Shown piece by piece: positions 22,431 to 35,297 of a stretch of 38,979 nt of DNA. This DNA is from Escherichia phage LM33_P1. Made by a program: the position numbers and the translations under genes. The stretch is from the sequence record NC_031937.1. One strand, given 5' to 3'. Below the pieces are notes generated by a model. The model did not search any database. It saw only the letters and a list, made by a program, of their open reading frames with translations, and had not been told where the DNA came from. Each line of letters starts with the position of its first letter. The stretch's first letter is position 1.

Positions 22431-22470
22431 AAACCCCTTGGGTGCCTTCGGGTGCTTGAGGGGTTTTTTT
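22431..22470 (+). terminator. T-phi-like terminator for phage RNAP (G-U-rich hairpin plus T7 tract)
   Basis: AACCCCTTGGGTGCCTTCGGGTGCTTGAGGGGTTTTTTTG closely resembles T7 T-phi. Confidence 0.85.
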
Positions 22471-33116: not shown

Positions 33117-35297
33117 ATGTCCACGATTACACAATTCCCTTCAGGAAACACTCAGTACAGGATAGAGTTCGACTACCTAGCCAGAACGTTTGTTGTTGTT
33201 ACGCTGGTGAATAGCTCTAACCCTACCCTGAACCGTGTACTGGAAGTTGGTCGAGATTACCGATTCCTTAATCCAACGATGATTGAGATGTTGGCTGACC
33301 AATCAGGTTTCGACATCGTTCGTATTCACCGTCAGACTGGAACTGACTTAGTGGTAGACTTCAGGAATGGCTCAGTGTTGACAGCTAGTGACCTGACCAA
33401 TTCAGAGCTTCAGGCTATCCATATTGCAGAAGAAGGTCGAGACCAAACGGTTGACTTAGCGAAGGAATATGCCGATGCTGCTGGTAGCTCTGCTGGCAAC
33501 GCTAAGGATAGCGAGGACGAATCACGCCGAATCGCTGCGAGTATCAAGGCAGCTGGTAAAATTGGCTATATTACCCGTCGCTCCTTCGAGAAAGGCTTCA
33601 ACGTTACAACATGGAACGAGGTCCTGCTATGGGAAGAGGATGGTGATTATTACCGCTGGGATGGTACGCTTCCAAAGAACGTTCCCGCTGGTTCAACTCC
33701 TGAATCATCTGGTGGTATTGGGCTGAGTGCGTGGGTTAGTGTTGGTGATGCGTCACTTAGAGCAAACCTGGCTGATAGTGATGGCGCTAAATACATAGGC
33801 AGTGGAGAAAGGACATTACTTGAGCACAACAATGATGTTTTGCACTCAAAAGACTTTCCAACACTGCAGGCAGCTATAGATGCATCTTTGCAAAAAAATG
33901 ATCTACTGGTGTCTCCTGGCAATTATACTGAAAAAGTTACTATTGGAAACGCGCAGTTAAAAGGTGTTGGCGGGGCCACGGTACTAAAAACTCCGGCAGA
34001 CTTTACAAACACTGTTCAGGTTAATTTAGCTACACCTCATTGGCAATTCCGCCATAGTGGTGGTTTTGCTATAGATGGTTCCGGGACAACCGGGGCCGTA
34101 GGTATTAGTTTTGACCCGTCAGACCAATATTCCGGACGTCATAATTTTAGTGATGTATACATCCACAACATCAACAAGGCCATTCAGAAGCCTTCCGGGA
34201 ACATCGGCAATACTTGGAGAAATATTGGGATATCTACGTGTGATTGGGGGTATTACGCGATTAGTGGCTCAGAGATGCATTGCGGGGCCGATACCCTCTA
34301 CAATATCCACTTCGATGGCATCTCCACCTATGCAGTCTATCTAGACGGCACTGTCGATAATGGCGGGGGGGGCGCATGGTGGCTTAAAGACTCCATTATT
34401 GAGGCTTCCGGAGGTGGCGGGATATACTTAAAAAGTAAATCGGGCGACTGTCCTACATCTCCATGCGGGGTATCCAATATATGGATGGAAGCGATCGCAA
34501 CATCACCGGCTGTTCAGGTAGACGGCGTGGCGCAAAAACCGCGAGTTCTCAAGTTGGTAGACACAGCGATATTCTTTGCTGAGTATTCTTATCTCAACAA
34601 CATCGAGCTATCCAACTCCAACTTAGTAACTTATGGTTGCCGTTTTGACAACGCTGATGGCAATCAGGATATTGTCGTGGATGCACAAAGTACCATTGTA
34701 GCCCATGACGTGTATTTAAACGGCAGTTCTGGAAAGGACGTTATTGTGGAGTCCGTAGCATCGCAATCTGCAACGATAGCTGCCACAAACTTATCTCTGA
34801 GGGGCAACTTAACAAGAGGGAGAGTATTTAATACGCCGACAGGGAATAAATTAATGGCTATCACATTTGACTCAGGTAGCCATAATTTTTCTGGCAGCGG
34901 CACCGTTAACGGTTCGACTGTATCTGACGGACTTCACGCCGCTACATGTACCGAATTTTCATTCCCCGGAGCCGGTTTATATGAAATGGTAGCGACAAGA
35001 ACAACCATTACATCCGGTAGATGGTACGTGTGGGGAGTTAACTCACGCCTACAATCTGGCTCGGCGGATATTAGTATAACGTCAGGTATTACCATGGGTA
35101 GTGTTTACACAAAGCCGGGGGAGTGGATTAGCACTTTCGGTGTAGGAAAGGCATCTACCACTGGCACTGTAGCGCTATACGTTTCCACAGGAGGAGGTTC
35201 GGGAGCTACGGTCAGATTCAGTGACTTTTTCATCGCTGAGTTTACGACGCAAGCTCAGGCTTTAGCTTTCGCCAATTCAAGGATGTCGTTATCATAA
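33117..35297 (+). CDS. 17: Tail fibre/tailspike: T7 gp17-like N-terminal domain fused to beta-helix-type C-terminal receptor-binding/depolymerase-like module
   Basis: N-terminal roughly 150-220 aa resemble T7 gp17 (F.YLAR.FVVVTL......L....DYRF, H.AEE.RD); C-terminal portion is Gly/Ser/Thr-rich with repetitive beta-strand pattern and distinct AT-richer codon usage. Confidence 0.88.
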   Translation: MSTITQFPSGNTQYRIEFDYLARTFVVVTLVNSSNPTLNRVLEVGRDYRFLNPTMIEMLADQSGFDIVRIHRQTGTDLVVDFRNGSVLTASDLTNSELQAIHIAEEGRDQTVDLAKEYADAAGSSAGNAKDSEDESRRIAASIKAAGKIGYITRRSFEKGFNVTTWNEVLLWEEDGDYYRWDGTLPKNVPAGSTPESSGGIGLSAWVSVGDASLRANLADSDGAKYIGSGERTLLEHNNDVLHSKDFPTLQAAIDASLQKNDLLVSPGNYTEKVTIGNAQLKGVGGATVLKTPADFTNTVQVNLATPHWQFRHSGGFAIDGSGTTGAVGISFDPSDQYSGRHNFSDVYIHNINKAIQKPSGNIGNTWRNIGISTCDWGYYAISGSEMHCGADTLYNIHFDGISTYAVYLDGTVDNGGGGAWWLKDSIIEASGGGGIYLKSKSGDCPTSPCGVSNIWMEAIATSPAVQVDGVAQKPRVLKLVDTAIFFAEYSYLNNIELSNSNLVTYGCRFDNADGNQDIVVDAQSTIVAHDVYLNGSSGKDVIVESVASQSATIAATNLSLRGNLTRGRVFNTPTGNKLMAITFDSGSHNFSGSGTVNGSTVSDGLHAATCTEFSFPGAGLYEMVATRTTITSGRWYVWGVNSRLQSGSADISITSGITMGSVYTKPGEWISTFGVGKASTTGTVALYVSTGGGSGATVRFSDFFIAEFTTQAQALAFANSRMSLS

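Follow-up and report, generated by a model that had tools for sequence, protein, structure and literature searches.

A run of eight guanines lies within the tail fibre gene of Escherichia phage LM33_P1, raising the question of whether it serves as a switch, turning receptor binding on and off through slipped-strand mispairing, or whether it is an incidental product of sequence change at a single codon. The former possibility was raised in an earlier note on this DNA, which proposed that slippage at the run could give stochastic on/off or variant expression of a host-range gene. LM33_P1 is a T7-like podophage of the genus Kayfunavirus, for which the isolation host was an ST131-O25b:H4 Escherichia coli strain (PMC5434335). 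The window considered throughout is the whole stretch of DNA that was analysed, comprising the 38,979 nt of the LM33_P1 genome.

The tail fibre gene and its G8 run

Across gene 17, the window shares 100 % identity with Kayfunavirus LM33P1 (OZ035813.1), and the encoded gp17 corresponds to the RefSeq LM33_P1 tail fibre, YP_009324518.1. The N-terminus of the ORF matches the T7 tail-fibre adaptor domain (PF03906, E = 3.4e-16) as well as Tail_spike_N (PF18668), by which the naming of gene 17 in the earlier note proves to be correct. Additionally, residues 1–225 align with tailspike N-termini of known structure, with PDB matches that include T7 gp17 and related N-termini. Only one tailspike/fibre gene is found in the T7-like late region, located between gp16 and the holin, and LM33_P1 has no receptor-binding protein besides gp17. 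The features of relevance within the gene are as follows.

33117..35297, + strand: gene 17, tail fibre/tailspike of 726 aa (ORF list, Pfam and PDB sequence matches)
33792..35294, + strand: exchangeable receptor-binding module, residues 226–726, predicted as a right-handed beta-helix and C-terminal beta-sandwich (AlphaFold)
34347..34376, + strand: loop of residues 411–420 (GTVDNGGGGA), predicted to lie between two beta-helix strands (AlphaFold secondary structure)
34365..34372, + strand: G8 homopolymer run, comprising GGG417, GGG418 and the first two bases of GGC419 (direct read)
34368..34370, + strand: codon 418, the GGG state of which creates G8, and which reads GTG, GTT, TGT or ATA in relatives

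Structural prediction for residues 226–726 yields a model of high confidence (pLDDT 92.4, pTM 0.88), in which a right-handed parallel beta-helix is followed by a C-terminal beta-sandwich. Foldseek searches with this module return the tailspikes of CBA120 (TSP4), Sf6 and P22, alongside Klebsiella depolymerase tailspikes, with E-values down to 1.6e-8, and CBM-like domains are matched also. Model and matches together support the earlier placement of the run inside the receptor-binding module of gp17, and locate it in the beta-helix. The fold predicted for the C-terminal module is the same as that of the P22, Sf6, HK620 and CBA120 tailspikes, and, as with the modules of those proteins, it has been exchanged among podophages, siphophages and other phages; Kagunavirus siphophages, for example, share the gp17 module at 87–89 % nucleotide identity from gene nucleotide 677 onwards. 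Unlike these tailspikes, the gp17 module is known from a predicted fold.

A direct read of the LM33_P1 window reveals exactly eight G residues at 34365–34372 of the plus strand (ATGGCGGGGGGGGCGCATGG), set in the frame GGC416 GGG417 GGG418 GGC419 and encoding the GGGG of DNGGGGAWW, so that both the presence of the run and its in-frame GGGG motif within gene 17 are borne out. From the start of the run to the end of the gene there are 309–310 codons, in agreement with the figure given in the earlier note. No homopolymer in the 38,979-bp genome is longer, the next in length being A7, T7, G6 and A6, and no other G/C run reaches 7 bases. Two further possibilities for the surrounding sequence were considered and set aside: a G-quadruplex has no canonical motif here, with the next G3 run lying ~45 nt away, and nothing supports gene status for an antisense ORF at 34337–34477 (46 aa).

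With regard to chance expectation, dinucleotide-preserving shuffles predict 3.2 G7/C7 matches, compared with the two overlapping matches observed. Synonymous codons were also shuffled within each gene, with every protein kept, and a run of at least 8 bases then appeared somewhere in 51 % of the shuffled genomes, within gene 17 in 26 %, and as a G8 at this very GGGG in 6.6 %. The same procedure generates 11.0 ± 3.0 in-gene runs of at least 6 bases, against the four that are observed, demonstrating a genome-wide depletion against which G8 stands out. Neither kind of shuffle makes the run statistically surprising: unusual as it is in a genome with so few runs, it does not exceed what chance would produce for the protein that is encoded. 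This depletion (4 versus 11 ± 3) agrees with a 2025 preprint in which, among coliphages, repeat density is at its lowest in Kayfunavirus and Teseptimavirus (PMC12633550).

Origin of the run and its length amongst relatives

The homologous stretch was gathered from 22 GenBank phages, 5 IMG/VR contigs, 2 metagenome contigs and 10 further contigs. Outside of the records bearing G8, codon 418 takes the following forms.

GTG (Val): HC12 and siphophage loci L034–L038
GTT (Val): HC13 and 6925
TGT (Cys): Emlis
ATA (Ile): most Kagunavirus siphophages and SHAK9454
GTA (Val): ES17-type kuraviruses
ATC (Ile): locus L004

The nearest outgroups possess either GGGGTGGG (Val; L034–L038 and HC12) or GGGATAGG (Ile) in place of the run, and, when the siphophage genes are taken for an outgroup, the ancestral base at the second position of codon 418 (gene nucleotide 1253) proves to be T. 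As the outgroups carry T at this position, G8 is a derived state that arose from GGGGTGGG by way of one T>G transversion. Across 58 homologues, extending down to 35 % identity, the column for residue 418 reads I44, V8, F2, L1 and G3, such that I, V, L or F is present in 55 of the 58 (95 %), marking a conserved hydrophobic position within the motif GG-x-GG-WW. The run itself is restricted to a subclade of sequences that are at least 99 % identical; judged by this distribution, it is young and limited to one clade, quite unlike what would be seen for a maintained switch. Within the clade the G8 allele spans up to about 10 module differences and resides on two flanking haplotypes. Site patterns conflict as to whether the run had a single origin or several, and recombination is evident among these phages. 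The only break within the G8 clade is the TGT of Emlis, which changes the amino acid.

A comparison of tract length among isolates, which the earlier note had put forward as a check, finds exactly G8 in all 10 carriers, these being independent records in which the reading frame is intact. The carriers are LM33_P1, 22664BS1, 101136BS1, 101118UKE1, LNA5, four SRA-derived assemblies and one NCBI assembly, and they originate from different laboratories, with France, Germany, Australia, four SRA runs and one NCBI assembly as their sources. No G7 or G9 variants, synonymous interruptions or frameshifted copies of gene 17 were found among these ten records, and all BLAST alignments of the surrounding 451 bases are gap-free in closely related records. 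Pattern scans tolerant of G6–G10 in metagenome, viral and genome collections recovered only normal-length, Ile-type alleles and no length variant, and an exact look-up of ten hypothetical truncated products of G7 or G9 alleles found them absent from about 15 billion proteins. As signs that would speak against its proposal, the earlier note had named an invariant tract length in deep sequencing together with synonymous interruption of the run in related phages. This is only half borne out: tract length is invariant across the ten records, and relatives do interrupt the run, but by Val, Cys or Ile and never synonymously.

These same records bear on whether the run is an artefact of sequencing or assembly, the true sequence being GGGGTGGG or a tract of another length. 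Homopolymers are indeed error hotspots, and the nearest alleles are one base away; the occurrence of G8 with an intact frame in ten independent records or assemblies nevertheless makes such an error barely conceivable.

Slippage, truncation and known systems

When the run is shifted in silico by one base in either direction, gp17 is truncated (437 or 423 aa), just as had been claimed, at the stop codons listed below.

34429..34431, + strand: TAA after a –1 deletion (G7), giving a product of 437 aa that ends ...GGGAHGGLKTPLLRLPEVAGYT (in-silico frameshift)
34385..34387, + strand: TAA after a +1 insertion (G9), giving a product of 423 aa that ends ...GGGGRMVA (in-silico frameshift)

Either product acquires a novel tail, of 4 or 21 residues, with no alternative ORF, and the computed truncation removes about 290–300 C-terminal residues, corresponding in the structural model to the distal beta-helix rungs and the entire beta-sandwich.

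It could be envisaged that a defined amount of such a shorter gp17 isoform is produced by programmed ribosomal frameshifting or transcriptional slippage. T7-like phages use frameshifting in gene 10, and on GGG GGG the A-site tRNA can shift its pairing to the –1 frame. The in-frame heptamer is, however, C GGG GGG and not X XXY YYZ. Folding of the next 100 nt is no more stable than that of shuffled sequences (z = –0.52), Rfam yields no match, translation in either shifted frame ends after 4 or 21 codons, and the run is absent from homologues. With neither a canonical heptamer, nor downstream structure, nor an Rfam family, programmed frameshifting was rejected as extremely unlikely.

A true contingency locus would entail reversible, high-frequency slippage at G8, producing a subpopulation with truncated gp17 that confers a bet-hedging benefit, as in Fletchervirus. 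An 8-base, in-frame run within a host-range gene has the appearance of such a locus: contingency loci are characterised by a homopolymer of at least 6 bases that is in frame within coding sequence, as G8 is, and the run likewise falls within the repeat definition of the preprint by Gomez, Barrick & Waters (2025; homopolymer of at least 6 bases in an ORF; PMC12633550). In that study, read-level indels occur at most phage runs of at least 6 bases, including the single such run of T7, which supports the earlier contention that a run of this length is slippage-prone in phages. By analogy with this T7 repeat, G8 probably shows read-level indels as well. Furthermore, the five LM33_P1 runs of at least 6 bases (0.13 per kb) exceed the genus averages of 0.02–0.07 per kb (PMC12633550), with gene 17 holding two of them. 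The same preprint nonetheless finds a general deficit of repeats in tail fibres, and the fewest repeats in Kayfunavirus and Teseptimavirus, and the loci that it demonstrates, T2 agt and T4 rIIA, are conditionally dispensable genes with a trade-off. Unlike these, G8 lies in an essential gene and shows no sign of reversible switching.

The closest parallel is offered by the Fletchervirus phages of Campylobacter, in which hypermutable polyG tracts are reported in receptor-binding protein genes (Sorensen et al. 2021, Cell Rep 35:109214). Those tracts, of G7–G11, and the G8 of LM33_P1 are both in frame in a phage receptor-binding gene, and the same slippage mechanism is expected of both. In Fletchervirus, the tracts are reported to vary within populations and to switch one of several receptor-binding options, with both states viable. 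LM33_P1 differs in each regard, as its G8 is invariant in 10 records, is absent from homologues and occupies the sole receptor-binding gene, such that a shift would be lethal. With one tailspike gene, a genome in the off state would be expected to become non-infectious after one phenotypically mixed cycle, leaving only the on state viable, and both frameshift products stop within 4–21 novel residues with no alternative ORF to take over. Nor does tract length differ among isolates or assemblies, and selection has not maintained the tract across related genomes, given that it is not conserved beyond the subclade of at least 99 % identity. Thus, three of the four defining features of a contingency locus that were tested (length variation, tract conservation and viability of both states) are lacking, and it is very unlikely that G8 represents one. 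The proposal of useful stochastic on/off or variant expression accordingly finds no support, with all 10 records at G8, a run confined to one subclade, no G6–G10 variants in three public collections, and gp17 as the sole tailspike.

Most probably, G8 is instead an incidental and young by-product of a V418G substitution, imposing a small mutational load and not acting as a switch. Codon 418 was GTG (Val), within GGC GGG GTG GGC, in the common ancestor from which the LM33_P1 subclade descends, and a single T>G transversion at 34369 converted it to GGG (Gly), fusing G4 and G3 runs into G8. Residue 418 is predicted to stand at the end of a loop that is rich in glycine and variable in length (GG-x-GG-WW), placed between two strands of the beta-helix. 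If the repeats measured in other phages are a guide, slippage under a T7-like DNA polymerase may occur at ~1e-4 to 1e-3 per genome, with each slip truncating gp17 at 423 or 437 aa and presumably abolishing its function. Slipped genomes could then ride in wild-type-coated particles through one more infection, to be followed by fibre-defective progeny, and purifying selection would remove them. It is because gp17 is the sole receptor-binding protein that slipped genomes should be limited to this one further infection, making the run a load and not a switch.

Two observations on the history of the run sit less comfortably with a load. G8 is never broken synonymously, which is unexpected if a slippage load were strongly selected against, and its persistence across the clade and on two flanking haplotypes likewise counts against such a load.

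Homopolymer runs were recognised as frameshift hotspots, acting via slipped-strand mispairing, in the T4 rII work of Benzer and Streisinger. The rII hotspots belong to the same category of passive ±1 slippage as G8, and it is with these passive homopolymer frameshift hotspots that the run is most likely best filed. Unlike T4 rII, the gene that harbours G8 is essential, and its mutants would therefore not be recoverable as plaques.

Substitution at codon 418

Whilst the run itself is ordinary, the codon that completes it is hypervariable, and this is the only mildly interesting outcome of the analysis. In a set of 13 full-length genes of at least 99 % identity, containing 93 variable nucleotide sites, codon 418 is alone among 727 in varying at all three positions, with four codons (GGG, GTG, GTT and TGT) represented. 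On a neighbour-joining tree built without codon 418, this codon accounts for 4 parsimony events, with every other codon at no more than 2. The chance of any codon reaching four events is P = 0.011, or 0.0037 when two obvious recombinant patches are left out. All four events are G<->T transversions. Emlis, which is nested in the G8 clade, has just five differences from the clade consensus, and two of these make up its GGG to TGT change.

In the AlphaFold model, loop 411–420 corresponds to model residues 186–195, a non-strand segment between strands E180–185 and E196–206, in a block with pLDDT of 87–91. Residue 418 is situated at the C-terminal end of this loop, between predicted strands 405–410 and 421–431. 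The loop is variable in length, with insertions of 3–8 residues in distant homologues.

One explanation for repeated change at this codon is a dislocation (misalignment) hotspot, whereby G4-T-G3 converts to G8 at a raised rate and the resulting G run then attracts G>T changes. In dislocation mutagenesis of the Kunkel type, a base takes the identity of its flanking run, which is what the T>G change at codon 418 amounts to. The four independent G<->T events in otherwise near-identical genes fit this scheme, as does the presence of G8 on two different flanking haplotypes, albeit that recombination can account for the latter. The transversion class is, however, not special to codon 418, with G<->T plus A<->C changes accounting for 43 of the 93 variable sites of gene 17; dislocation gives no reason to expect a G>T change in the interior of a run, and selection on residue 418 would explain the same pattern. 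On balance, a dislocation hotspot is unlikely. It is equally unlikely that a context-driven hotspot toggles residue 418, in a receptor-binding loop, between Val, Gly and Cys much faster than is usual for other sites, thereby tuning host recognition within the O25b:H4-ST131 complex, on which LM33_P1 preys; were this so, toggling at codon 418 would constitute localized hypermutation by substitution and not by frameshift. Three causes may underlie the variability of the codon: selection for the recognition of glycan or host, a relaxation of constraint, or a bias in mutation that stems from the G-rich surroundings. In the literature on the isolates with G, V or C at this position, no phenotype is tied to residue 418.

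Taking G8 as a by-product of V418G, the practical implications are modest. Together with its relatives, LM33_P1 is a candidate for phage therapy against the ST131-O25b:H4 E. coli clone, and, in phage production, the longest homopolymer of the genome, lying as it does in the sole receptor-binding gene, should be a minor and predictable source of defective genomes. It is also a site at which variant callers will misfire, and synonymous recoding could remove it at no cost to the protein. Residue 418 is the more useful lead. It is the residue most often substituted among natural isolates (G, V and C, with I in outgroups), and for this reason presents a cheap first target for mutagenesis of host range or stability.

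Exchange of the tailspike module

The receptor-binding portion of gp17, the tailspike of LM33_P1, is not confined to T7-like phages, as revealed by comparison at both the nucleotide and protein levels.

33792-35294, + strand: shared receptor-binding module, gp17 residues 226-726

The same module is found in Kagunavirus siphophages, with 87-89 % nucleotide identity, and in the Kuravirus phages ES17/myPSH, with about 67 %, and its boundary is a sharp junction at approximately nucleotide 677 of gene 17. It is also present in proteins that possess a P22-type head-binding domain (PF09008), and is likewise carried by proteins of 816-844 aa. The gp17 module clearly illustrates how a tailspike module moves from one phage morphotype to another.

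Recombinant patches and substitutions in gene 17

Within the alignment of 13 gene 17 sequences from the LM33 clade, two members display private differences that are tightly clustered, and that are mostly synonymous in both cases.

34661-34841 (gene nt 1545-1725), + strand: cluster in L033, the sequence from ERR13731096, of approximately 20 sites in 180 nt
33527-33553, + strand: cluster in the relative HC12 (L047), of 7 sites in 27 nt

The distribution of these differences indicates short patches that were recombined in from diverged alleles. Across the same 13 sequences, transversion sites (A↔C, 22; G↔T, 21) are about as common as transition sites (C↔T, 25; A↔G, 21), and the spectrum of gene 17 is thus unusually rich in transversions, an excess that may derive from oxidative damage or from recombination with diverged donors.

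Homopolymers and a putative late terminator

Gene 17 harbours a second homopolymer, a run of seven A, which is unchanged in all 13 LM33-clade genes; in the siphophage homologues the corresponding site is shortened or broken (e.g. AAGAAC, GAAAAAT).

33892-33898, + strand: A7 within CAA AAA AAT (Q-K-N, codons 259-261)
22436-22470, 3′ of the capsid gene: G+C-rich hairpin followed by a U-tract, arms AACCCCTTGGG...CTTGAGGGGTTTTTTT

The T7 homopolymer at 22464-22470 forms the U-tract of this hairpin, and the element as a whole looks like a late terminator of the T-phi type, rather than a coding repeat. Over the whole window, runs of at least 6 bases within genes number only 4, against 11.0 ± 3.0 expected from synonymous-codon shuffles, a scarcity that fits the idea that selection removes slippery runs from T7-like genomes.

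Doubtful database records and hosts

Several of the records compared carry questionable labels. MZ417522.1 (L027, 'Mycolicibacterium phage J1') is a 24,953 bp entry whose label is that of a Mycolicibacterium phage of the Microviridae. A stretch of it matches the window at 67.1 %, the same figure as for the tail-fibre gene of the E. coli kuraviruses ES17/myPSH, with which it is identical across 50 compared bases around the G-rich loop. Mislabelling or contamination of this entry is probable. Two further entries look like errors of annotation or classification: SHAK7858 (L016, OR594183.1), named vB_EcoM and classed as Kayfunavirus, is 44.5 kb with a Kagunavirus-type tailspike of 661 aa, and in SHAK9454 (L017, OR594184.1) the gene 17 region bears a single annotation, 'similar to terminase large subunit', entered as a misc_feature. 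Finally, LNA5 (L008/L046, MZ311861.1) possesses a tailspike of the LM33 type, with the run of eight G and several private substitutions, and its listed host is E. coli K-12 MG1655; as K-12 is without O-antigen, this would be an odd host for a phage with a tailspike of this kind.
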